Source: Methylococcales bacterium
GTDB taxonomy: Bacteria; Pseudomonadota; Gammaproteobacteria; Methylococcales; Methylomonadaceae
DNA: 64,000 bases
Reading direction: 5' to 3'
Assembly (NCBI GenBank): GCA_030693155.1
Contig: JAUYBJ010000057.1
Coordinates: 10,275-74,274 of the forward strand
Shown: piece after piece, positions 750 through 64,000 of the stretch
Layout: every line of letters starts with the position of its first letter
Numbering within the stretch: the stretch's first letter is position 1
Made by a program: the position numbers and the translations under genes
Notes under the pieces: generated by a model
The model's database searches: none
What the model was told of the DNA's origin: nothing
What the model saw: the letters and a program-made list of their open reading frames with translations, nothing else

Positions 750-1506
750 AATTGAACATACCTTGCGAGCTGCAGGCGATATTTTAGATGAAACTAAATT
801 TATTATTGTAGGTAGTCAATCTATATTAGGAAAGTTTCCTGATGCTCCTGATGAATTACTAATGTCTGCGGAAGTGGATATGTATTCAAAGAATAAACCC
901 TTGTTATCTGAAAAACTCAATGCAATCGGTGTTGGTTCGCAGTTTGAAAAAACATATGGTTATTACGTTGATCCAGTAGACGAAGGAACGGCCATCTTGC
1001 CAAAAGGCTGGAAAAGTCGGTTAGTTAATCTTAAAAGCCCAGCAACTAATGGTGTAACAGGATTATGTCTGGATCCACATGATTTGTTTGTGTCAAAAAT
1101 GGCAGCTTCAAGAGAAAAAGATATTGAATATTGCAAAGTTATGATTGAACACAACCTTATTGGTAAGGAACGGGTGCTTGATTTGGCTGCAACAATTAAA
1201 AATCCTATTGATGATCCAGAATTAAGTAACAGGACGATAAGAAAAATAGAAACTATTTACCAGGGTGTGGATTTATCAAAAACAGTACATGTAAATACAG
1301 AGAATGGGTTCTATACAGGAAAAATTATCAGTGTGACAGACACGGTAGTTCAGCAAGATGCAGGGCGTGGCAAGATGATTTTTCATGAGGCCAGTAAGTT
1401 AGATCAACAACCCATCATTGGCCGCAGCTATGAAATTAGATACAACCATGGCATAGCTACTGTGAATCGTAACGAAAAAGAAAATAAGAAAGATCATACG
1501 CTATGA
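697..1506 (+). CDS. Pol-beta-fold nucleotidyltransferase-like protein (AbiEii/DUF6036-like) with an extra C-terminal domain
   Basis: hG[GS] motif (IIVGSQSILG) followed by an acidic pair (SAEVDMY). Start is uncertain (ATG 697/712 or GTG 736). The stop overlaps the next start (ATGA at 1503). Confidence 0.4.
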   Translation: MLIWLMKRLWRSFVKRDEIEHTLRAAGDILDETKFIIVGSQSILGKFPDAPDELLMSAEVDMYSKNKPLLSEKLNAIGVGSQFEKTYGYYVDPVDEGTAILPKGWKSRLVNLKSPATNGVTGLCLDPHDLFVSKMAASREKDIEYCKVMIEHNLIGKERVLDLAATIKNPIDDPELSNRTIRKIETIYQGVDLSKTVHVNTENGFYTGKIISVTDTVVQQDAGRGKMIFHEASKLDQQPIIGRSYEIRYNHGIATVNRNEKENKKDHTL

Positions 1507-3137
1507 CATTCAAGAAATTCATTCTAAGTAGCTTTGCAGCAATACTATTAACTTCATGTGCTACTTTGCCACAGGGAAGTAACCCAGCTAAAGACGAAAG
1601 CAAGTTACGTAATTATCGTGTGATGACTCCAGAAGAAAAAAATAATGCAGATATAGCAGCTGCTGCATTTAGCAGCACATCAATTCGATTAAATAAAAAT
1701 GCAAACGGACTTACTGCAGAGCAATCTCAAATAGTTGCTAAGTGGGAAGCCATCAAAAAGAAATATGCCAAGGTTAGCGTTCTTAATGCGCAACAATCAC
1801 TAGAAATAGGGGGTGCTTTGGCACCATTATTGGCTGCAGCAGATCAAGAATATCAGGGTGAACAATCAATTCAATCTGGTATATCTAAAACGGTAACAGT
1901 AAAACCAAATAGCCTGGTAAGAATGGCCGTGAATGGGTATTGCATGGATCCGCAATTAAAAGCAGCAGGGGAGGGCGAGAAGTTTCATTTAATACCAGCT
2001 GAAAAATTAATCAGTCCAGACTTATTATCCCTATATCGCGCCGTTGTTGCTTATGGTGATAACAATCCTAATTCTAAAGATAACGTACAAGCAATTGTTT
2101 GGGCTATTCGTACAAGCTGTGATGCAGACATGAAATACGTGAAAATCCTAAATAACACACATTTCAAGATAATGAATGAGTCATATCCTAATGGTGCAAA
2201 TGTATTTGTTCGGCATGTTGATAGCTGTCACGGTACATCAAATAATATTTTCCAAAGCTTTGCCGATGAATTTAAAAAAACCATAGACGATACAAAAAAA
2301 CTGGTTGAAAGCACAACAAACTTTAAAAATGAAATGGCACGTATTTTATCTTCTACGCCAGATCAAGAACAACCCTCTGCTACTAAGGAAGTAAAACCAG
2401 AAGCTAAAATTCAGAACGGTGAATATTCTATGTTAAGCCCAGGTGTTTATGCAAAAGTAGTGGGTACCAAACAATTAGGCATGAATGTTGAAATTCTTAA
2501 TACTACAGATAAACCTTTTAATTATGAATCTACCTATTGGGCGGCTGTTCCTGTTAATAATTTTCAGATCGTTCAAAGTCAAACACCTAATTCAATATTA
2601 GGTGCTCAAGGCAATCAAGTAATGACCGCTTATGCAAAAGATGCTTTTAAATACTTAGCAGAAAAGACTTTGGATAAATCATCATCATCTACAGGAATTG
2701 GCAAGATATTTGTGAAAATAAAAGGAAATAGTATTAGAAATCCTATATTCAAAAATCTACTTGAAATAACCCCAGTAGCTGGGAATGCGCTTGCATTATA
2801 TGAAACATTAAGTGGTAAAGATTGGTTAACGGATCAACCTCTTTCTGCCGCTGAAAGATCTTTAGCATTGTTATCTACAGTACCAGGTGCGAATTTGGTA
2901 AATAAGGCTCTACGTGGCACGTTAAAAACAAGTGGATATGTAATGAAAACAATTCATGAGCTTGAAAGAACAGGCGCAATTAGAGACGCAGCAAGTTGGG
3001 CTATTAGCGATACTGTTGACGGTTTCTTAGGATCATATTCACCTAAAACTTACGTAAATAAATTTACAGATAATGTTAGTAAAACTTTAAGTCAAGTTGC
3101 TGATAATAGCGTTAACGCTATGGGGGGTATTAAGTAA
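1503..3137 (+). CDS. Lipoprotein with pre-toxin-TG-like segment and short C-terminal tail (polymorphic-toxin-like)
   Basis: Signal peptide plus lipobox (AAILLTSC). Around nt 2760-2890, ITPVAGNALALYETLSGKDWLTDQPLSAAERSLALLSTVPG resembles the PT-TG pre-toxin module. About 80 aa follow it. Confidence 0.45.
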   Translation: MTFKKFILSSFAAILLTSCATLPQGSNPAKDESKLRNYRVMTPEEKNNADIAAAAFSSTSIRLNKNANGLTAEQSQIVAKWEAIKKKYAKVSVLNAQQSLEIGGALAPLLAAADQEYQGEQSIQSGISKTVTVKPNSLVRMAVNGYCMDPQLKAAGEGEKFHLIPAEKLISPDLLSLYRAVVAYGDNNPNSKDNVQAIVWAIRTSCDADMKYVKILNNTHFKIMNESYPNGANVFVRHVDSCHGTSNNIFQSFADEFKKTIDDTKKLVESTTNFKNEMARILSSTPDQEQPSATKEVKPEAKIQNGEYSMLSPGVYAKVVGTKQLGMNVEILNTTDKPFNYESTYWAAVPVNNFQIVQSQTPNSILGAQGNQVMTAYAKDAFKYLAEKTLDKSSSSTGIGKIFVKIKGNSIRNPIFKNLLEITPVAGNALALYETLSGKDWLTDQPLSAAERSLALLSTVPGANLVNKALRGTLKTSGYVMKTIHELERTGAIRDAASWAISDTVDGFLGSYSPKTYVNKFTDNVSKTLSQVADNSVNAMGGIK

Positions 3138-3490
3138 TGTGGGTTTATCGTTCTGTAAGTGAAATGCTACTAATATTCGCAATATTGCCTATTATGTATT
3201 TAGTGATATGGGGAATAATTAAATTAAATTTACCTACGCTTGCACAAACAATAATAAATTGTGTAGGTGTAATTTTGTTATTTTTTGCAGATGGCCCACC
3301 GTCTAATGACCCAATAGCATGGGTTGCAGGGCTAATTTTTATCCCACTTTGGATCTTAGCGATAATTCATACTGGAAGAAAAGGGAAACCTATGTATCAA
3401 ATTGCATTAGGAGTATTTGTAGGTATGCACTTGGTACGTTATATAGCTACGGGTTCAACTGGTTTAAATATGCTTTGGTGGATCTCTTAA
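3137..3490 (+). CDS. Small 4-TM membrane protein, paralog 1 (immunity-like)
   Basis: Start overlaps the stop of the lipoprotein gene (TAATG). Four hydrophobic segments. C-terminus GVFVGMHLVRYIATGSTGLNMLWWIS is shared with the next ORF. Confidence 0.6.
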   Translation: MWVYRSVSEMLLIFAILPIMYLVIWGIIKLNLPTLAQTIINCVGVILLFFADGPPSNDPIAWVAGLIFIPLWILAIIHTGRKGKPMYQIALGVFVGMHLVRYIATGSTGLNMLWWIS

Positions 3491-3501
3491 GATTACACTA
3501 A

Positions 3502-3852
3502 ATGTGGGCTTATCATACCGTTGGTCAAACACTACTTATATTTCCTGTGGCCATCATCATGGGACTTGTTGTGATTTTTATTGATTGGCTTAAATTAAAT
3601 AAAACCGTAGAAATGGTTTTAAGTTGTTTTAGTATTTTTCTATTCCTACTAGCTGATGGGCCGCCTAGAGATTTAATGAGTTGGTTTGTTGGCATTCCTG
3701 CAATATTGGGATGGTGTTATCTTTCAATTGCTTGCTGGAAACGTGGAGGAAATATGAAGCAGGTTATCCTTGGGGTTTTTATTGGTATGCATGTGGTTCG
3801 TTATATTGTTACAGGTTCAACTGGATTAAATATGTTTTGGTGGATGTCTTGA
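3502..3852 (+). CDS. Small 4-TM membrane protein, paralog 2 (immunity-like)
   Basis: Roughly half of its positions are identical by eye to 3137-3490 (MW.Y..V...LLIF…ADGPP…GVFIGMHVVRYIVTGSTGLNMFWWMS). Only an 11-nt spacer separates them. Confidence 0.6.
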   Translation: MWAYHTVGQTLLIFPVAIIMGLVVIFIDWLKLNKTVEMVLSCFSIFLFLLADGPPRDLMSWFVGIPAILGWCYLSIACWKRGGNMKQVILGVFIGMHVVRYIVTGSTGLNMFWWMS

Positions 3853-3910
3853 AATAAGGCTATTGAGGTACTTACGCAACTGTGTAAAATACTTGAAAGT
3901 AAGAAAAATT

Positions 3911-5701
3911 ATGAAACCAGCTAATTACATATCGATAAATTCAAATAAAAGACAATCGTTAGATTCTAAGCAACAATATCTTGCCATGAAATCTATGGCA
4001 CGTGGTTATGCAGAAGAGCTTGCTGAGTTGGATCGATTGTCTATTATGCATGCGTTTTGCATATCAATGATGAGCAGCTATTGGGATTCTGTAGTTGAGT
4101 CCAAAGGGGCAAAACTAAAGATCAAAAAACCACCATTCGGTGCAGTAGCGCTTGATTCAGTCGCAATCGACTTAGCAACACAAATCGGTAAAATTGTTTC
4201 TCATTTTCCAGCTGCAAATGCAGGCTACCTGATTGGTAGTGTGTATACGATTATGCTTCCAGAGCAAATGCGTTCAACACTAGGCGCTTTCTATACGCCA
4301 CCATCATTGTCTGAAAGACTCATTGATCTGGCCATATCCGCAGGCTTTGATCCTGCAAAGCATAGTGCTTGTGATCCATCATGTGGTGGGGGTGCCTTTC
4401 TTTCGCCCGTAGCCGCACGAATGTTACAAGCTACCCCCCAAAGTACACCCGAACTTACTTTACGCCGTATAGCCTCGCGTTTGCGTGGCAATGAGATAGA
4501 TCCTTTCGCTGCATGGATTTCCGAAGTTCTATTAGAGGTAACACTACTGGATCTGATCGTGGCCAGTGGTAAACGAATGCCTGATGTTGTTACTGTGGGT
4601 GATTCACTGAATTTGGATAGTACATTTGGTACTTATGATTTAGTCATCGGTAATCCTCCCTATGGTAGAACTACACTTACCCCTTCTTTACGTGAAAAAT
4701 TCTCGCGTAGTCTTTTTGGTCATGCAAATTTATATGGCGTTTTCACGGACTTGGCATTAAATCTATGCAAGCCCAATGGCGTAATTGCCTACGTTACACC
4801 AACGTCTTTCCTTGGTGGCCAGTATTTCAAAGCATTGCGTGAGTTGCTATGTGCAGAAGCGCCAGCCCATGCCATTGATATAGTATTTGGTAGGGAAGGT
4901 GTGTTTGACGGTGTTTTACAGGAAACCGCATTAACGACATATTGCAGGAACGGTAAACCTGTACAAGTTAGCATTTCTCAAGTGACGACTGGGCCAGATG
5001 ATGTAGCCGAGGTTACATTAATTGGTAAATCGAATCTGGATACCCATGGTGGCCCATGGCTGTTACCTCGCTCAAAAGAACAAGCTTCGTTCTTTGATGC
5101 TCTGCGCATGATGGATACCAGGCTTACAGATCTTGGTTATGATGTAAGTACAGGGCCATTGGTATGGAATCGTCATAAAGACCAATTGAAAACCAGTATC
5201 AAGGGTAAGAACACTTATCCATTGATATGGGCTGAATCAATCGCTTCATCTAAATTTGTGTTCTCAGCGGTTAGGAAGAATCATGCGCCTGCAATCAAGG
5301 TTCTGGATAACCAGGAACATCTATTAACCAAAACATCTTGTGTATTGGTTCAAAGAACTACATCCAAAGAGCAGGTTCGTCGTCTGATTTCTGCTGTACT
5401 GCCAAAAGAGTTCCTTAATAAGCATGGCGCAGTTGTTGTTGAAAATCACATCAATTCAGTTTATCCAGTTATCGAGACTGAGATTACACCAGAAACCATG
5501 GCGGTATTATTCAATTCACAACCAGTGGATGCGGCATTTCGCTGCATTAGTGGTAGTGTTGCAGTTTCCGCCTATGAGTTAAAAGCATTGCCTTTACCGA
5601 CCTTACAACAAATGAAACAACTTCAAGCTTTGATTCAAAACAAAGCGAGCTCAATCATCATAGAAAACACAATCAAACGTTATTACGGAATCAGTGCATG
5701 A
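3911..5701 (+). CDS. N6-adenine DNA methyltransferase (Eco57I/PstI-type gamma class)
   Basis: SAM motif I DPSCGGGAFL and catalytic motif IV LVIGNPPYG. ATG 3911 is preferred over the TTG 3863 used in the track. Confidence 0.8.
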   Translation: MKPANYISINSNKRQSLDSKQQYLAMKSMARGYAEELAELDRLSIMHAFCISMMSSYWDSVVESKGAKLKIKKPPFGAVALDSVAIDLATQIGKIVSHFPAANAGYLIGSVYTIMLPEQMRSTLGAFYTPPSLSERLIDLAISAGFDPAKHSACDPSCGGGAFLSPVAARMLQATPQSTPELTLRRIASRLRGNEIDPFAAWISEVLLEVTLLDLIVASGKRMPDVVTVGDSLNLDSTFGTYDLVIGNPPYGRTTLTPSLREKFSRSLFGHANLYGVFTDLALNLCKPNGVIAYVTPTSFLGGQYFKALRELLCAEAPAHAIDIVFGREGVFDGVLQETALTTYCRNGKPVQVSISQVTTGPDDVAEVTLIGKSNLDTHGGPWLLPRSKEQASFFDALRMMDTRLTDLGYDVSTGPLVWNRHKDQLKTSIKGKNTYPLIWAESIASSKFVFSAVRKNHAPAIKVLDNQEHLLTKTSCVLVQRTTSKEQVRRLISAVLPKEFLNKHGAVVVENHINSVYPVIETEITPETMAVLFNSQPVDAAFRCISGSVAVSAYELKALPLPTLQQMKQLQALIQNKASSIIIENTIKRYYGISA

Positions 5702-6771
5702 CGTGGCCAACAGTTCCATCTTTAAGCACTGTCATTGCACGATTGCCACTGATATTTCCAGAAGGTGTAGAGAATCGACAATACTGTATTCGTGAGGCTA
5801 CCGCTAAAACAATTGCAGTCATGTTTTATTGCGGTGCCATTCATGGATCCGATCGATGGGCTAGACCTAGCCAGGTCACGGATATGTCTAATGAACAGAT
5901 CGCACTTACAGACCAGAGCGCTCGTGAAGCATGGTGTGCTTATATGTTGTCCAATAAGAAAAAACAGCGATCGTCTGCTGCATGGTATGCGGTTAATTCG
6001 CGTGAACAGATCCGCGATGAATGTATTGCTAAAGGCCTAATACCCAATCAAGCTGTATTTGAACGGCCAGGTGTACCCACAACATCATCCAAGCCGAAAT
6101 ATGCGCTTAAACCTGAATTTGCAGCCTTGTTTGATGAAACTTTAGAAGGTGATGAATTGTTGGCCGTAATAACAGCGTGGCAGCTGCGGTTCCTATCAAC
6201 AACAGCTATGGCACGTGCAACAATAATTCGTAGGAATGCAGTTGCTTCTACAGATCGAGTACAAATAGTGTTTCCTAGCGGTAGTGCTATTACATTAGCG
6301 CCTGGCGAAAGCTCGATGATCACTAAAGCAGTGGTGGAGCAATTCACACGACATTTTTTGATACAGCCAGCTGTGTTGTGGCTTTCAGAAAGTGCAAACA
6401 AAGTTATTGATAATCGATTAGTTGAAGACTTGCATTTACATATAGATCAATCTAAAAGTTTGCCTGATTTAATCTTAGTTGATCTTAACCCTGCTGATGG
6501 TAATATACTCGTGGTTTTTGTAGAAGTCGTGCATACCGATGGGCCAGTAAGTCAACAACGCAAAGAGGCTTTGGAAGCCATTGCGCTAGATGCAGGGTTT
6601 GAAGCAGAGCACTTAGCTTATGTCACAGCGTTTGCCGATAGAAGCGCGAGTCCATACAGAAGCCTGGTACATAATTTGGCTTGGAATTCATTTGTATGGT
6701 TTGCCTCTGAGCCTGAGAGCATTATTATTTTAAAATTAGGAACAGAAAGAAAATTATCAGAATTACGTTAG
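5698..6771 (+). CDS. Type II restriction endonuclease, BsuBI/PstI-like
   Basis: ATGA overlap with the methylase gene. The C-terminal pattern LPDLILVD…VVFVEVVHTDGPVSQQRKEALE…YVTAFADR…LAWNSFVW matches my recollection of the BsuBI/PstI REase C-domain. Confidence 0.55.
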   Translation: MTWPTVPSLSTVIARLPLIFPEGVENRQYCIREATAKTIAVMFYCGAIHGSDRWARPSQVTDMSNEQIALTDQSAREAWCAYMLSNKKKQRSSAAWYAVNSREQIRDECIAKGLIPNQAVFERPGVPTTSSKPKYALKPEFAALFDETLEGDELLAVITAWQLRFLSTTAMARATIIRRNAVASTDRVQIVFPSGSAITLAPGESSMITKAVVEQFTRHFLIQPAVLWLSESANKVIDNRLVEDLHLHIDQSKSLPDLILVDLNPADGNILVVFVEVVHTDGPVSQQRKEALEAIALDAGFEAEHLAYVTAFADRSASPYRSLVHNLAWNSFVWFASEPESIIILKLGTERKLSELR

Positions 6772-8144
6772 AAGAAATGACGATCAAATTGTTTATGAAT
6801 ATCTATGATCTGTGAAGACCATTTTAATGCAATGTAATTCCCTTGATTAGCAATTAGCCAAGGTTTTATTGTTACCTCGGCTAAAGAACTAACAATATCT
6901 CGATAAAAGTTTGTATCTACCTTACATAACCCATCAAAATTTATTAGCATATTCTTTTTATCTAGTAATAAAGTAGATTTGCTGCCCCTCTTAAATGCAA
7001 TTATATGTAATTTATCAGAATTAGTTTTAAATAATAAAAACCTATAGCTAGGATCTGCAAAATTATTTTCAGGAATAATTTCTACACTAAAAGCAATGTC
7101 CCCTCCGTGTGTAATTTCATTGTAAACATTATCTACATCTACCTGTTTTTCAGAAGCCAGTAAGAAATAATTTCCATCTGGTTCATAAACAGAACTTCCA
7201 TCTGAATATTCAAAAATTTGGCTAACATTAATTTGTAAATCGGTATGTATAAAATCTATTGTTTCAAAATCAAGTCCTTTTTTACTCTTTAAATACCAAT
7301 CTAAATCTTGTTTTTTTATATCCATTCTTTTTGCAAAAGCTGCTAACGATTCTGGCCAACACTTAAGAATACAATTAACTACTGAATTACCATCTAAACC
7401 GTCAATCATTTGATCTGAAATATCATAATCTATAAGACCACCAGTAACTTGTACTTCATATTCAACTTGCTCTTTTGAGCGTGGTGGAATCTGGTTCTGA
7501 TTATTTAATAACCATTCACCAACATTAAAATTATCCCATTCTTTTTTACAGAAATTCACTAAAGGAGGGTAGTGGGGTTTGATATTGATAAAACTATTGC
7601 ATTTAAGTTTTACGTCATTCTTAAGACTATATTCGTAAGGAAAAGACCATGTTTTATTATCATGGTATGCAACATTTAATTCTTCAAGTAATAGATTTTG
7701 TTCTTTATCATCAATATTTGAAGCAAGCCAATATTTTTCTATAGCATTATCTTGAGTTACTTTTTGGTTTACATTGTAATTTCGATCATTACCATTAGCT
7801 ACGACTAAAACAATATTTAAGGTCTCACACATTATTTTTAGCCAAGGGAATTCATTTAAAAATCGATTGCTAACTTTTAGTATGTTAGGTAAACCAACTA
7901 GATTGGCTTCACTCCACGCTTCCATTAAAAATTCGTAAACAGAACCTGGCAGTTCTATATTGTAGAATCTCATGAACCTTACTGGGATACCTTCAACATT
8001 CAATGAGTAAATCAGAATAGGTGTTAAACCCAGTTTTTGAGCGTCTATTATTGATGTATTTTCTATTGTTCTTACAACATAGCCATCAGAATTAAGAAAT
8101 AATTTTTTACTAACCAGAATAGCAAATTGATGAATTATTAACAT
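6768..8144 (-). CDS. Hypothetical protein, 458 aa, no recognisable domain
   Basis: Long uninterrupted ORF in very AT-rich DNA. Its 3' end overlaps the REase gene stop by 4 nt (convergent). Confidence 0.5.
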   Translation of the reverse strand: MLIIHQFAILVSKKLFLNSDGYVVRTIENTSIIDAQKLGLTPILIYSLNVEGIPVRFMRFYNIELPGSVYEFLMEAWSEANLVGLPNILKVSNRFLNEFPWLKIMCETLNIVLVVANGNDRNYNVNQKVTQDNAIEKYWLASNIDDKEQNLLLEELNVAYHDNKTWSFPYEYSLKNDVKLKCNSFINIKPHYPPLVNFCKKEWDNFNVGEWLLNNQNQIPPRSKEQVEYEVQVTGGLIDYDISDQMIDGLDGNSVVNCILKCWPESLAAFAKRMDIKKQDLDWYLKSKKGLDFETIDFIHTDLQINVSQIFEYSDGSSVYEPDGNYFLLASEKQVDVDNVYNEITHGGDIAFSVEIIPENNFADPSYRFLLFKTNSDKLHIIAFKRGSKSTLLLDKKNMLINFDGLCKVDTNFYRDIVSSLAEVTIKPWLIANQGNYIALKWSSQIIDIHKQFDRHFF

Positions 8145-59733: not shown

Positions 59734-60530
59734 TTACTTCGTCAAATAAAAAATACCGAGCATGCCATGCTACTTTCTTGCTGGCCTGCAAGCTATTGGC
59801 TTCAATGGCATTGATGACTTCATTGGTCAAAGCTGAAGTAACCCCTGAAGAGTTACCTTCTCCCGTGGAGGATAGTGCGGTTCGCAGTTTCTTACTGATC
59901 GATCAGCTTGAACACACCACAACGCGTTACACGGGCGGTGATAAAGATGGCGATGCGGTGCGTTTCAATACGTCCGGATGGATCGGCGGCGACTACAACC
60001 GGCTCTGGTTATACACTGAAGGCACGAAAGTCTATGACGGCAAGCTGGAGGATGCAGATGTGCAGCTTCTATATGGTCGCCTCATTGCTCCATTTTGGGA
60101 TTTGCAAGCGGGCCTGCGCTATGCCAAGCCGCTATCGGATGGGCCATCGCGCAGCTACGCAGTGTTCGGTGTCCAAGGACTTGCGCCTTATCGATTTGGG
60201 GTGCAGGCCGCGACTTTCTTAAGCGAGCGAGGCGATATTTCCGCGCGGGCTGAGTTGGAATATGAGCTGCTGCTAACCCAGCGCTGGATTTTACAGCCGC
60301 GCTTAGCTGTCAATTACGCTCTTCAAGAAGTAAGAGATCAAGGCATAGGTCGCGGCTTGAACGACATCGAACTCGGATTACGCTTACGTTATGAGATCAA
60401 GCGCGAATTTGCCCCCTATGTTGGTGTGTCATGGCAGTCTAGCTACGGCGGAACAGCTGATTTTGCGCGCGACCGAGGTGAAGATGTGAATGAATGGAGC
60501 TTGGTCACTGGGGTTCGATTATGGTTTTAA
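59730..60530 (+). CDS. copB: CopB/PcoB outer-membrane copper resistance protein
   Basis: ATGA coupling to the oxidase gene. …DQLEHTT…WIGGDYNRLWLYTEG…WDLQAGLRY… beta-barrel pattern. Confidence 0.8.
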   Translation: MITSSNKKYRACHATFLLACKLLASMALMTSLVKAEVTPEELPSPVEDSAVRSFLLIDQLEHTTTRYTGGDKDGDAVRFNTSGWIGGDYNRLWLYTEGTKVYDGKLEDADVQLLYGRLIAPFWDLQAGLRYAKPLSDGPSRSYAVFGVQGLAPYRFGVQAATFLSERGDISARAELEYELLLTQRWILQPRLAVNYALQEVRDQGIGRGLNDIELGLRLRYEIKREFAPYVGVSWQSSYGGTADFARDRGEDVNEWSLVTGVRLWF

Positions 60531-60632
60531 CTTGGATTGAAAGGCATCACACTCGTTTAACTGCAAATCAAGTGTCATTTTTTCAAAAGTCGCTAAAGTG
60601 CCTTGGGCTTGATGTTTTAAAAGGAGAATTTC

Positions 60633-60939
60633 TTGCTTCCTATTGTTAGTAGTGGAATGCTTTACCTTGTTAGTGCAATTGAGATTATTGCAGCCATATT
60701 GATCGGGTTAGCAAGTCTACAATGCGCTGTAACCGTAGCAGGCCTATTTTTTCGGCGTAGCCCCTCTACCGCAGAGAAGGAGGATGTCAGACTAATTTGG
60801 GTTATGGCTTTCGCTTGCAATCGAATTTGAGTTAGCAGCTGATATTTTGCGAACAGTTTTTAGTGTGTTGCAGCGATCGGTTGAATTCAAGGCCGTTAAC
60901 GGACAATTAAAAGCTAAAAGTCACACTACACCACCATAA
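60633..60939 (+). pseudogene. DUF1622-like membrane protein gene, frameshifted and C-terminally aberrant
   Basis: Frame 1 gives …EKEDVRLIW then stops at 60828-60830. The +1 frame from 60796 reads FGLWLSLAIEFELAADILRTVF, which is the family's conserved LEF..AADI.RT motif. Confidence 0.45.
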
Positions 60940-61136
60940 CTGATAGAACTTAATATTTTCTTTACTTCCATAAGTCCGGCATCAGTTTCAGCCATGGATA
61001 TTGGTGTTGCCCCTAAAGCAAAGTTTTCTCTATTTAGCCATTCGTCGGCCATAGTTTTAGAGCCAAACGTTTCAATAGCAAGTGCTAGCATTTCGTCAAT
61101 TCGAAGTTGTACCTCTGATTTTGTTGTCATCTGCAA
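60921..61136 (-). CDS. DUF2384-type (ParS/MbcA/Xre C-terminal) antitoxin-like protein
   Basis: …ETFGSKTMADEWLNRENFALGATPISMAETDAGLMEVKKILSSISYG matches the A..WL..pn.aLgg..P…G…V…L..i..G pattern. No RES-like ORF adjacent. Confidence 0.55.
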   Translation of the reverse strand: MQMTTKSEVQLRIDEMLALAIETFGSKTMADEWLNRENFALGATPISMAETDAGLMEVKKILSSISYGGVV

Positions 61137-61337
61137 TCTCCTTAGAAATCAATCAACCTATCTGATTTTGTTTTGCTATGTGCATCATATAAATGATGTA
61201 CTTTGCTTGTTAATAAAAAAGGCTCCCATTCCAATAGACATACCAAAGTCGAGCACGTTTTCAGTAGGTATACCCAAAAGTAGATTTTCTAATTTGAAAC
61301 CGTTGGCTTTGGGCCGTAAGAGGCCGGTAAGAATAAT

Positions 61338-61568
61338 TTATTTAGTTGTAACGAAGCGACCATTTGGCGCACGAGCAACGATTCTACCTTTATATAAATA
61401 GTAGTGAGGAAGACCTATCGCTTTTTGCCTATCAATTGCTACACGGATTGCTTCTTTAGCAATTTGCTCAAATGCTACAAATATAGGGTTTCGTGGGAAG
61501 TCGTTCGAGGCTTTAAATACTCTGGTTCGTATCATCATTACTCCAACTGGTTTTAAAACCATGGCCAC
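61338..61568 (-). CDS. Hypothetical small protein
   Basis: 76-aa ORF in AT-rich DNA. No motif recognised. Confidence 0.3.
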   Translation of the reverse strand: MAMVLKPVGVMMIRTRVFKASNDFPRNPIFVAFEQIAKEAIRVAIDRQKAIGLPHYYLYKGRIVARAPNGRFVTTK

Positions 61569-61781
61569 TAGCTTCCTTTTGTAGGATGAATTATTTTAAT
61601 TGTAAACGAAAAATACATTAAAGAAACTTAGCACTGCATAAATGACTTCTTGGCCGACATAAGCTTAATGGGTAGTTACAATTCCAATGATGATTTCGGT
61701 TGTTGTATATGATTGCACGGCACTCATGCGATTGCATTAGAATGCAATCATTATCCTTTATTGCGCCTTCTAACTTTGGTC

Positions 61782-62309
61782 ATGACAATTCATGTATTTT
61801 TGGACACTGAGTTTACTGCTCTAGCTGAATCAGCCTCTTTAATATCCATAGGTTTAATCACCGCAGAAGGAGATAGGTCTTTCTATGCGGAACTATCTGA
61901 TACCTATACTCATAAAGAATGCTCAGACTTCGTACTACAAGAAGTATTACCTCTTTTAGATGCTAAACGAATTACTGACCCGATTAATTACAAGCATGTT
62001 TATGCGCGCATGACCCTGGCAGAAACAAGCCTGCATCTTAATTATTGGTTTGCAGCACTGATTGATCCAGTACAAGTATGGAGTGATGCACCAAACTACG
62101 ATTGGCGCTATATCCAGCAAATATTTAGCGCCACAGGACTGCCTTATAATCTGTTGGCAACACCTAATGCAATATTAGGTGAAGATACTTCAGCCAATGC
62201 TAGCTATCAAAACACAGTAGAGCGTGAGTACAGTCAAAAAGCATTAAGGCGACACCATGCCTTGGATGATGCAAAGGCAATGAGGTTGGGCTGGTTAGCA
62301 GTATACTAA
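61782..62309 (+). CDS. DEDDh 3'-5' exonuclease (Rv2179c-like exoribonuclease family)
   Basis: FLDTEFT (Exo I), …VWSDAPNYDWRY… (Exo II-like), RRHHALDDA (Exo III, DEDDh). ATG 61782 is preferred over the track start. Confidence 0.65.
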   Translation: MTIHVFLDTEFTALAESASLISIGLITAEGDRSFYAELSDTYTHKECSDFVLQEVLPLLDAKRITDPINYKHVYARMTLAETSLHLNYWFAALIDPVQVWSDAPNYDWRYIQQIFSATGLPYNLLATPNAILGEDTSANASYQNTVEREYSQKALRRHHALDDAKAMRLGWLAVY

Positions 62310-63622
62310 CTAACTTGAATGTTTTCACTAATTGGTACGTCAATCAAATCGCGAGCTACACAAACACCTTCCTTAATAACATAGGCTTCTACAAAATGTT
62401 CGCCGTGAAAAGTAGTCTTTTCGATGCGCTGACTTTTTCCTTCATCTAAAAAGATATCACCTCTAATCATTCTGCGCCGCTCTGCTTCAGCACCAACATT
62501 TCTAACCTTCCATAAGAGAGTGTAGGGTGTTGGGACGTCACAAGATTCGACAAAAAATCTAAGCCCTTGTCCCACCGGCAACCACTGCTTTAATAAAGCG
62601 CGGAGGAGACCAGTGTGCTGACCATTCGTTGAAACCTCACTGTTAATTTCAAGATCAAACTGAATATCAACTGGGTATTGATCTTCAATAAATTGCTCAG
62701 TCGTACTTCTGTAATTAACTGATTCGTAAACAGCAGCAGCTTTTTCAAGTTTTAGGACTTCACCTGGGAATGAACGTCCGAATACATCCCGCCAAATCTT
62801 GATTTTTTTCTTTTCAGTATCAGCATCTAGCGCTTCTTGGCATTTTACAGCCGCCTTTTTTGCTTTAGATTGAAACTTGCCTTTATTATTGACACGTTGC
62901 CCACTGCCGGGTGCTAGCCAAAAGTCTTGATGTTCGAGGTTGCCGATATAGCTAAATAGTGAGACAAGCAGTCGATCATAGCTGCTATACGACGCTGTAT
63001 CGTATTCATTCGTCTGCCCAAAAAAGTTATAAACCAAAGTATCAATAAGCATACCGCTGATATTTACACCGTTAGAATTTTTCCAAGCTCGAATCATCTT
63101 GCATACATGCTTGAGGTTGCGATTTGTTTCTTTGTTTCTTTGGTTGACAGCATTAATCTCTTGAATTGGCTTACAAACTTTCCAAGTGCCTCCATCATGA
63201 GTGTCGCCAAAACGATACCCATCCGCGTCTTTATCCCAAAAAGCTGGCAGGACTTCAACCCTGAATTTTCCGAACTCGATGCAGACAACCTGGCCATCCC
63301 CTTTGATAGTGGTATTAGGATACCGGGTTAAAAGCGAGTTACGTACAGCTTGTAATAGCTGCGATGGGCCATTATTTGTATAAGCTTTGTATTTCTCATA
63401 AGTAGACCAAGGTAACTCAAACACCATATCCAGATCACTAATGCCATGTACAGCGGTATTTCTTCCGTAAGAACCTACTTGCCGGCAGTGCGCTATATCT
63501 GACTCGATATTCCAGAAATCCAGATTAAGCCGTTTAGTAATTTCAGTATATGAGGTTGAGATATCAGCTGCATTCTGTACGGCAATATTATCTCGAAACA
63601 ATTTAAATAGTGGCGCGCTCAT
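62306..63622 (-). CDS. SMODS-type nucleotidyltransferase with C-terminal AGS-C-like sensor domain
   Basis: Pol-beta/CD-NTase-like core QVGSYGRNTAVHGISDLDMVFELP…VEVLPAF. About 130 aa of beta-rich C-terminal domain (…LLWKVRNVGAEAERRRMIRGDIF…). Confidence 0.6.
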   Translation of the reverse strand: MSAPLFKLFRDNIAVQNAADISTSYTEITKRLNLDFWNIESDIAHCRQVGSYGRNTAVHGISDLDMVFELPWSTYEKYKAYTNNGPSQLLQAVRNSLLTRYPNTTIKGDGQVVCIEFGKFRVEVLPAFWDKDADGYRFGDTHDGGTWKVCKPIQEINAVNQRNKETNRNLKHVCKMIRAWKNSNGVNISGMLIDTLVYNFFGQTNEYDTASYSSYDRLLVSLFSYIGNLEHQDFWLAPGSGQRVNNKGKFQSKAKKAAVKCQEALDADTEKKKIKIWRDVFGRSFPGEVLKLEKAAAVYESVNYRSTTEQFIEDQYPVDIQFDLEINSEVSTNGQHTGLLRALLKQWLPVGQGLRFFVESCDVPTPYTLLWKVRNVGAEAERRRMIRGDIFLDEGKSQRIEKTTFHGEHFVEAYVIKEGVCVARDLIDVPISENIQVS

Positions 63623-63631
63623 ACCTAACCT

Positions 63632-64000
63632 TTAGCAGATGTGAATTAAATTAATCAATAGCAAGGTAGCTTTAAAAATTAGTCCAACGACTATTAATAA
63701 AACAATGATGGTGAAGCTCAGTGGCCACTTATCTCTTAAAAGGCTGAACTTCAGTTGTTCGTCCATCCACTCGGTTTGGGACTGCCAGAAAAATTTGTAA
63801 TGCGCGTACCAATCACTTAAAAATATCTGCTTATTAATACGTAGACTAAAAACCTCTTTTTGAATACGTTTTAAGTCTTCCGCGTGTTGAGTGAGATCAT
63901 CACCTGTATTCGTTGATTTAACGGTTTGGTACAGAATTCTTAACTCATGAAACTTGTCAGTAAGGGCACTGCCTGCTACTTGGTATTTATCCTTAACATC
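63632..64000 (-). CDS. 3' part of a CDS encoding a C-terminally TM-anchored protein (5' end outside window)
   Basis: The minus-strand frame is open from the window edge to TAA (63632-63634). It ends …RDKWPLSFTIIVLLIVVGLIFKATLLLINLIHIC. The stop lies 9 nt upstream of the SMODS ATG. Confidence 0.55.
   Translation of the reverse strand, partial: DVKDKYQVAGSALTDKFHELRILYQTVKSTNTGDDLTQHAEDLKRIQKEVFSLRINKQIFLSDWYAHYKFFWQSQTEWMDEQLKFSLLRDKWPLSFTIIVLLIVVGLIFKATLLLINLIHIC

Follow-up and report, generated by a model that had tools for sequence, protein, structure and literature searches.

An AGS-C cyclase and a SLATT_6 membrane effector form a probable type I CBASS operon in a defense islet of a Methylococcales bacterium

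We analyzed the genes at the right-hand end of a 64,000-nucleotide stretch of DNA from a Methylococcales bacterium (NCBI GenBank assembly GCA_030693155.1, contig JAUYBJ010000057.1, positions 10,275 to 74,274 of the forward strand). This whole stretch is the window, and positions are counted from its first letter unless another contig is named. Two minus-strand genes there encode a membrane protein of the SLATT_6 family and, directly downstream of it, a cGAS/DncV-like nucleotidyltransferase (CD-NTase) with a C-terminal AGS-C domain. We think it very probable that these two co-transcribed genes are a type I antiphage signaling system based on cyclic oligonucleotides (CBASS), in which the effector gene precedes the cyclase gene, that they are carried as the cargo of a defense islet, and that the exonuclease gene that converges on the cyclase gene is unrelated to them. 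An initial annotation, made from the sequence of the window, had recognized the nucleotidyltransferase and a possible membrane effector, but had proposed the exonuclease as a third partner that could degrade the nucleotide signal.

The cyclase gene (62306..63622, minus strand) encodes 438 amino acids, with its coordinates and its GS...DLD core as first described. The assignment to SMODS with an added AGS-C domain was likewise borne out by Pfam: SMODS matches residues 6-163 (63134-63607) far over its gathering score (1.2e-44, 152.9 bits), and AGS_C matches residues 307-432 (62327..62704) with 135.4 bits against a cut-off of 26.7 (1.4e-39). In PADLOC, the Cyclase model PDLC00796 covers residues 3-433 (9.9e-174). 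The generic nucleotidyltransferase family NTP_transf_2 gives a sub-threshold match only (0.0067). As the domain matches at this locus run from 1e-10 to 1e-173, they are not due to chance.

The catalytic residues can be read directly from the sequence (G50-S51, D63-L64-D65, and E123). In an alignment of 23 homologs with 55-92% identity, G50, S51, D63, D65, and E123 are invariant, and E123 pairs with the third catalytic aspartate of CdnD from P. aeruginosa (PaCdnD). Thus, the protein has the G[S/G], [D/E]h[D/E], and third-acidic motifs by which a CD-NTase is recognized. A sequence search of the PDB gave just weak matches to CdnD (1e-5), so we turned to structure prediction and a fold search. The AlphaFold model (mean predicted local distance difference test score of 81.8) contains a CD-NTase core (residues 1-287, 62762..63622), a low-confidence or disordered linker (residues 288-307), and an all-beta C-terminal domain, in which DSSP assigns strands only, from residue 324 on. 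With Foldseek, the top PDB match of the model is PaCdnD (6p82, E = 3e-11, template modeling score 0.72), followed by CdnC, BfCdnB (7ljo), CdnE, DncV, and CdnG, all of which are bacterial CD-NTases. AGS-C is described as a C-terminal domain of about 18 kDa with an Ig-like beta fold; the Pfam score and the all-beta model fit this description as regards the position and the beta fold.

The gene upstream of the cyclase was said to stop 9 nt before the cyclase ATG, to be cut by the window edge, and to end in a strong transmembrane (TM) helix, and this is what we read: its stop codon is at 63632-63634 and the frame is open to the edge. The window holds the 3' part of the gene (63632..64000, minus strand), that is, the last 122 codons and the stop. 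This fragment matches Pfam SLATT_6 (5.2e-30, 104.8 bits against a cut-off of 27.1, profile positions 81-176 of 176) and the PADLOC model Effector 2TM (3.8e-40). To recover the whole gene we used contig L001 (117 kb), which is 100% identical to the window across their common 11.7 kb and runs past its edge. The full effector has 200 codons (L001 9389-9991; its start falls at window-equivalent position 64234, outside the window), and with it the matches rise to 2.1e-82 in PADLOC and to 252 bits for NCBIfam SLATT_6 (cut-off 100). The suspected membrane effector is thus a 200-amino-acid SLATT_6 protein. Hydropathy places TM helices at residues ~34-52, 58-78, and 172-198. The two-helix hairpin that accompanies an above-cut-off profile score in SLATT_6 proteins comes from the part in L001, beyond the window; the strongly hydrophobic C-terminal helix that drew attention to the fragment is the third helix, the only one of the three inside the window.

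The spacer from the effector stop to the cyclase ATG (63623..63631, minus strand) is AGGTTAGGT, and it holds an AGG/GGT element that resembles a Shine-Dalgarno sequence. Given a 9-nt spacer with such an element, we take the two genes to form one operon. A scan of 60500-64000 for promoters and terminators did no better than on shuffled sequence (6 promoter-like sites, with 8.8 expected, and 4 terminator-like sites, with 2.9 expected), and it found no terminator between the convergent cyclase and exonuclease genes.

A scan of a genome collection gave 534 relatives of the cyclase, and our counts of neighboring genes refer to the best 80 loci, which have 41-92% identity and span Methylotenera metagenome-assembled genomes (MAGs), Burkholderiales, Bacteroidota, Firmicutes, Campylobacterota, and others. 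A SLATT_6 gene adjoins the cyclase in 51 of these loci, and a SLATT_4 gene in another 28 (28/28 of the adjacent ORFs of ~190-250 amino acids that were scanned). The remaining locus, L017, has no SLATT_6 match and no adjacent upstream ORF of at least 80 amino acids, and its contig stops ~110 nt past the cyclase. The pairing is therefore near-universal (79/80), and the conserved core is strictly two genes, cyclase and SLATT. Beyond this pair the neighbors vary freely: they include IetAS, type I restriction-modification (R-M) HsdS, Mrr, AbiH, and a second SMODS gene that lacks AGS-C. Conservation of a three-gene neighborhood, which had been suggested as a check, holds for the cyclase and the SLATT gene and fails for the exonuclease, which is in none of the 80 loci.

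The layout had been called non-canonical for CBASS because the cyclase does not come before the effector. This does not stand. Among the SLATT_6 loci, the effector gene is upstream of the cyclase in 41 and downstream in 10, so effector-first is the usual order for SLATT_6 partners in this clade of cyclases. In agreement with the initial annotation, we found no Cap2 or Cap3 gene in the 10 kb to each side, and the gene and Pfam list for L001 has no HORMA/TRIP13 or QueC/TGT/OGG genes in that range either. As a cyclase and an effector without Cap2/3 or other accessory genes are type I CBASS by definition, the family assignments place the pair in type I, in the AGS-C/SLATT subclass, with what appears to be a canonical architecture that is already cataloged in Pfam, PADLOC, and NCBIfam.

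The same architecture, a synthetase with an AGS-C sensor and a SLATT pore-forming effector, was predicted by comparative genomics for SMODS-SLATT conflict systems (SMODS PF18144, AGS_C PF18134, SLATT_1-6). The match is exact except that the SLATT_6 protein here has an extra third TM helix at its C-terminus (~172-198); otherwise we see no difference of substance. Close counterparts with experimental support are EcCdnF04-SLATT6 and EcCdnF05-SLATT6, two type I operons whose cyclases are fused to AGS-C and that restrict several phage families at least 10^4-fold (Richmond-Buccola et al., 10.1101/2023.05.21.541620). Like our pair, they are two-gene operons of a SMODS CD-NTase with a C-terminal AGS-C domain and a SLATT_6 2TM effector, with no Cap2/3, HORMA/TRIP13, or QueC/TGT/OGG. 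The likeness is one of architecture: the best Escherichia homolog in our genome scan (L085) is ~43% identical and is paired with SLATT_4. In the same study, about 40% of type I CD-NTases carry an Ig-like AGS-C fusion, which is nearly universal in clades B and H and occurs in parts of F and G; the presence of AGS-C correlated with the phage families restricted; and the escape mutations against the tested relatives map to virion-assembly proteins (10.1101/2023.05.21.541620). A SLATT gene paired with a nucleotidyltransferase/AGS-C gene is also listed as a type I CBASS on lactococcal plasmids (PMC11381338). We do not draw on one review (PMC7288161) for support, as "AGS-C" there denotes DncV's helical lobe.

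By analogy with these systems, we propose that the cyclase would stay inactive until infection and would sense a phage cue with the help of its AGS-C domain. The active site formed by D63, D65, and E123 would then make a cyclic di- or oligonucleotide. This signal would bind SLATT_6 at its cytoplasmic helical part (residues ~80-165), and the TM helices of the effector would permeabilize the inner membrane, with the cell dying before the phage is completed (abortive infection). What the scheme says on the trigger by phage, on the kind of nucleotide, and on pores is taken from relatives and from the literature.

Several points weigh against our interpretation. NCBIfam CBASS_cyclase_b matches the cyclase with 111.8 bits (4e-32), below its equivalog cut-off of 200, so the protein is a diverged CD-NTase. 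For the first 78 residues of the effector, and with them its two hallmark TM helices, we rely on L001, as they lie outside the window. The defense function and the biochemistry that we ascribe to the pair would follow from the precedent of related CdnF-SLATT6 operons.

The exonuclease gene (61782..62309, plus strand) encodes a 175-amino-acid DEDDh 3'-5' exonuclease that resembles Rv2179c/RNase AS, and it is intact; its overlap with the cyclase gene is as first described. Its start, MTIHVFLDTEF, is shared with homologs, and Pfam Rv2179c-like matches with 40.1 bits against a cut-off of 27 (4.1e-10). The DEDDh residues are in place (D8, E10, D102/D107, H158/H159, and D163); D8, E10, D102, H158/H159, and D163 are conserved across 28 homologs, and the Exo I (DxE), Exo II (D), and Exo III (H-x4-D) motifs can all be identified. 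The protein shares the DEDDh motifs, the size of ~175 amino acids, and the Pfam family with RNase AS/Rv2179c, but it is only a distant relative and a cargo gene associated with mobile elements: NCBIfam RNase_AS gives 33.7 bits against a cut-off of 200, so it is not an RNase AS equivalog, and a PDB sequence search gave a marginal match to Rv2179c (4oke, E = 0.05).

The way in which the exonuclease gene came to lie beside the cyclase gene can be traced at the nucleotide level. Homology to the CBASS loci L011, L012, L013, and L018 stops at 62302-62314 of the window, and homology to the exonuclease loci L091, L095, and L098 stops at 62294-62300. The ends of the two blocks thus define a recombination junction at 62300..62303 between the IetAS-CBASS block (described below) and the exonuclease block. 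At the junction, the native last ~5 codons of the exonuclease have been replaced (it ends ...LGWLAVY-stop here and ...LGWLAINSFN in homologs). On the other side, the ancestral TAA stop of the cyclase has become CAA in this lineage alone, which adds Q-V-S and moves the stop to 62306-62308. Counting stop codons, the two ORFs overlap by 4 nt (62306-62309), and they do so because of this three-residue extension; otherwise there would be no overlap. As the two blocks of homology meet at this point and the exonuclease has lost its own last codons, we regard the adjacency as a recombination scar and not as a feature of the operon.

In L011 (~7330-7390), L013, and L018, a fragment that resembles the 3' end of a tRNA (...GTGGGGTTCGCATCCCCACGGGGACGCCA) can be seen by eye ~40 nt beyond the stop of the cyclase gene; the window lacks it. 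Scans for tRNAs (ARAGORN) found no complete tRNA in the window, in L001, or in the relatives. The fragment looks like an att remnant at the island end, as would be expected for an integrated island, with the exonuclease fused there instead in the window.

Past the window edge and divergent from the CBASS operon, L001 encodes an AAA ATPase of 375 amino acids and an S8 peptidase of 738 amino acids (L001 5896-9244, window-equivalent ~64379-67727). In PADLOC they match IetA (7.7e-84) and IetS (7.5e-49), both over the full length, and thus have the composition of IetAS, an AAA ATPase with an S8 protease. Their NCBIfam scores are below the equivalog cut-offs (241 against 510 bits for IetA, 122 against 900 bits for IetS), so we call the pair distant and IetAS-like. 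The spacer between the divergent IetA and SLATT_6 genes is 144 nt in L001, and the unit of nucleotide homology that is shared with Methylotenera and Sideroxydans relatives is exactly IetS-IetA-SLATT_6-cyclase. A wider gene order, KfrA_N, tyrosine integrase, IetS, and IetA, divergent from SLATT_6 and cyclase, recurs in L001 (1-11317), in L191 (644-8305, 74% cyclase identity), and in Pseudoduganella lurida (L036, 511-7299, 51% cyclase identity), where IetA and IetS are 37% identical. In all three the islet lies beside copper, mercury, or czc resistance genes, and in L001 the insertion of a mer operon separates the integrase from IetS. The islet thus recurs in Betaproteobacteria. From this gene order, the CBASS pair appears to be the cargo of an integrase-associated defense islet within a heavy-metal-resistance region. 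IetAS is found in 4 of the 80 genome loci, and contigs L191-L193, all with a single 74%-identical cyclase, contribute one more lineage. When 60500-64000 was compared with the plasmids of PLSDB by megablast, there was a sole, unrelated match (233 bp of DUF1622 in Methylophaga).

Two variants of the islet were also seen. In L194 (5812-8922), a cyclase with 70% identity has a downstream SLATT_4 gene, and AbiH takes the place of IetAS on the same KfrA/integrase scaffold, which points to a swap of effector and cargo that is apparently recent. In a Methylotenera MAG (AG31, L011 4132-5305), two overlapping ORFs stand in place of IetA, probably owing to a frameshift, and IetS, SLATT_6, and the cyclase are intact.

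How should the exonuclease and the IetAS-like pair be read? If the exonuclease degraded the signal or otherwise tuned CBASS, with expression coupled by convergent overlapping transcription, then an intact enzyme that overlaps the cyclase gene by 4 nt would make sense. The same arrangement does occur, with an identical cyclase, on more than 20 public metagenomic contigs, though these all carry one ~100% identical element, and a homolog of the exonuclease with 86% identity has a different cluster of the CBASS type as its neighbor (patatin effector, QueC, and Ogg; L091). Still, we consider such a three-gene system highly improbable. A conserved co-occurrence with the cyclase-effector pair, which would mark an accessory nuclease, is not seen: no member of the exonuclease family turned up in the 80 cyclase loci, whether searched with phmmer (E <= 1e-3) or with a hidden Markov model (HMM) built from 120 homologs (E <= 1). 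The closest relatives, Methylotenera and Sideroxydans MAGs with 88-92% cyclase identity and GCA_003704425.1 with 74%, keep the whole IetS-IetA-SLATT_6-cyclase block and have other DNA, without the exonuclease, after the cyclase. Conversely, no AGS-C cyclase was found in 90 exonuclease-centered loci (10 metagenomic, L091-L100, and 80 viral, L101-L180; HMM E <= 1e-3) or in the called-gene tables of the distant-homolog loci L187-L190. Nucleotide homology of the exonuclease to its relatives with 66-86% identity is limited to 61703-62300, and the neighbors are different in every context: a patatin/QueC/Ogg cluster together with caspase and integrase genes, modules of the HEPN-MNT and RES-Xre types, MazE-PIN, or, for a distant homolog, a Mu-like transposase. 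The truncated C-terminus of the exonuclease and an overlap that hinges on a lineage-specific TAA>CAA change point the same way. Because the exonuclease is absent from homologous loci and from the closest relatives, because its homology is confined while its neighbors vary, and because of the junction, we conclude that it is not part of CBASS; it appears to be an unrelated gene, associated with mobile elements, that was fused to the islet end by recombination. The idea of a signal-degrading partner is in our view already largely refuted by the comparative data.

It is also conceivable that IetAS and CBASS are one integrated four-gene system, in which, for example, the ATPase and protease regulate or process the cyclase or the effector. 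The divergent arrangement with its short shared intergenic region is seen again at cyclase identities of 88-92%, 74%, and 51%, with IetA and IetS down to 37%, and IetA is weakly similar to the TRIP13/Cap6 of type III CBASS (PADLOC, 1.6e-13). This seems quite unlikely nonetheless, as the cyclase-SLATT pair mostly lies beside other genes (HsdS, Mrr, AbiH, a second SMODS gene, and others), IetAS is a stand-alone defense system in both PADLOC and NCBIfam, defense systems often co-localize in islands, and the frameshift of IetA in L011 leaves the CBASS genes intact. Nor does the ATPase turn the locus into a type III CBASS (cyclase, HORMA, and TRIP13/Cap6), although an AAA ATPase adjoins the operon as it would in that class: its match to IetA surpasses that to TRIP13 by about 70 orders of magnitude, its partner is an S8 protease, and there is no HORMA gene. 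Looser ties between the two systems, such as co-regulation from the shared intergenic region together with synergy, by which IetAS processes or licenses CBASS or each covers for phage escape from the other, would make the cassette perhaps more than hitch-hiking, but this is a speculation that we hold unlikely. The divergent pairing of IetAS with CBASS is not among the co-localizing pairs reported in a published co-occurrence study. A different objection concerns the sign of the signal, which the sequence does not fix. A minimal synthase with a 2TM effector resembles the layout of Panoptes (PMC12657218), so a nucleotide made constitutively might restrain the effector, and killing would set in once sponges or nucleases of the phage deplete this nucleotide. 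However, the synthase here is a SMODS CD-NTase with a sensor-like AGS-C domain, and not mCpol, and related CdnF-SLATT6 operons act as conventional type I CBASS that phages escape via virion-assembly proteins (10.1101/2023.05.21.541620), so guarding of this kind is very unlikely. Finally, the weak, below-cut-off match to NTP_transf_2 might be taken to suggest a housekeeping or other non-defense second-messenger pathway, or an antibiotic or other nucleotidyltransferase. This is hardly credible. SMODS and AGS_C match at 130-150 bits and the CBASS cyclase model matches over the full length, the pair lies in an integrase-linked islet beside another defense system, and its occurrence across phyla, which range from Burkholderiales to Bacteroidota and Firmicutes, is patchy; at the level of family assignment, a non-defense role is already contradicted. 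We therefore return to a two-gene type I CBASS, SLATT_6 followed by the AGS-C cyclase, carried as islet cargo.

Some homologous loci show other arrangements of the pair. In four Bacteroidota loci (L060, L064, L070, and L076, ~4600-7900), an AGS-C cyclase and SLATT_4 lie directly 3' of a type I R-M HsdS gene, so that CBASS is embedded in R-M loci in these genomes. The same arrangement in L068, L069, L071, L072, and L080 is judged by the size and position of the ORFs only. Five other loci are two-cyclase variants of the operon, with a second, SMODS-only cyclase (~305-330 amino acids, without AGS-C) beside the AGS-C cyclase (L026 7374-8300, L027 7296-8246, L033 4353-5348, L079 4521-5354, and L084 4307-5221).

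The surroundings of exonuclease homologs are of some interest in themselves. In L091 (1-4568), the homolog with 86% identity has on one side a patatin effector of the CBASS type (PADLOC, 9e-98) and a cluster of methyltransferase, Ogg, QueC, and PfkB-nucleoside-deoxyribosyltransferase genes, and on the other side a caspase-like peptidase and an integrase. Here the same exonuclease gene may lie beside another CBASS-like island of a different kind, although no cyclase was seen in the stretch of L091 that we covered. In L187 (4460-6087) and L190 (4540-6183), distant homologs (45-47% identity) are in an operon with a conserved 148-amino-acid ORF of unknown function, which is followed in L187 by a 169-amino-acid Xre_MbcA_ParS_C protein and in L190 by a second DEDDh/RNase_T paralog; the L190 operon adjoins a Mu-like transposase. 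The viral contigs of IMG/VR are rich in distant relatives (411 matching stretches).

Two small minus-strand ORFs precede the exonuclease gene in the window. The ORF at 60921-61130 (69 amino acids) shares 55% identity with the last 67 residues of a 184-amino-acid Xre antitoxin, from the RES-Xre pair that flanks the exonuclease homolog in L095. Neither the RES toxin nor the helix-turn-helix part accompanies it in the window, so it is an orphan antitoxin fragment. The ORF at 61338-61562 (74 amino acids) has no family match, and a relative with 48% identity is found downstream of the cyclase in L013. We also considered that these two ORFs and the DEDDh gene might form a unit akin to a toxin-antitoxin module, and we rejected this: the 69-amino-acid ORF corresponds to no more than the last third of a RES-Xre antitoxin, and the RES toxin is absent.

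The rest of the window (1503-5701 and 18082-50270) encodes a protein with a PT-TG pre-toxin domain, an Eco57I-like N6 methyltransferase, an AcrB/CzcA-like resistance-nodulation-division pump, CopA and CopB, and four P-type ATPases, of which three carry domains that bind heavy metals (YHS/HMA). The window is a metal-resistance island with scattered conflict genes.

For the biology of CBASS, the locus offers little that is new, as its architecture is already cataloged and phage assays exist for systems that are close to it in architecture. It does clear up two points of interpretation: the idea of a signal-degrading exonuclease can be dropped, as the adjacency is a datable recombination scar, and the neighboring AAA ATPase should not be mistaken for the Cap6 of type III CBASS. 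The locus is also a clean environmental example, from a methylotroph, of the AGS-C/SLATT subclass. The only mildly novel point is the conserved islet of IetAS and CBASS, which we see as a modest lead on synergy between defense systems and on the carriage of defense cargo by metal-resistance islands.

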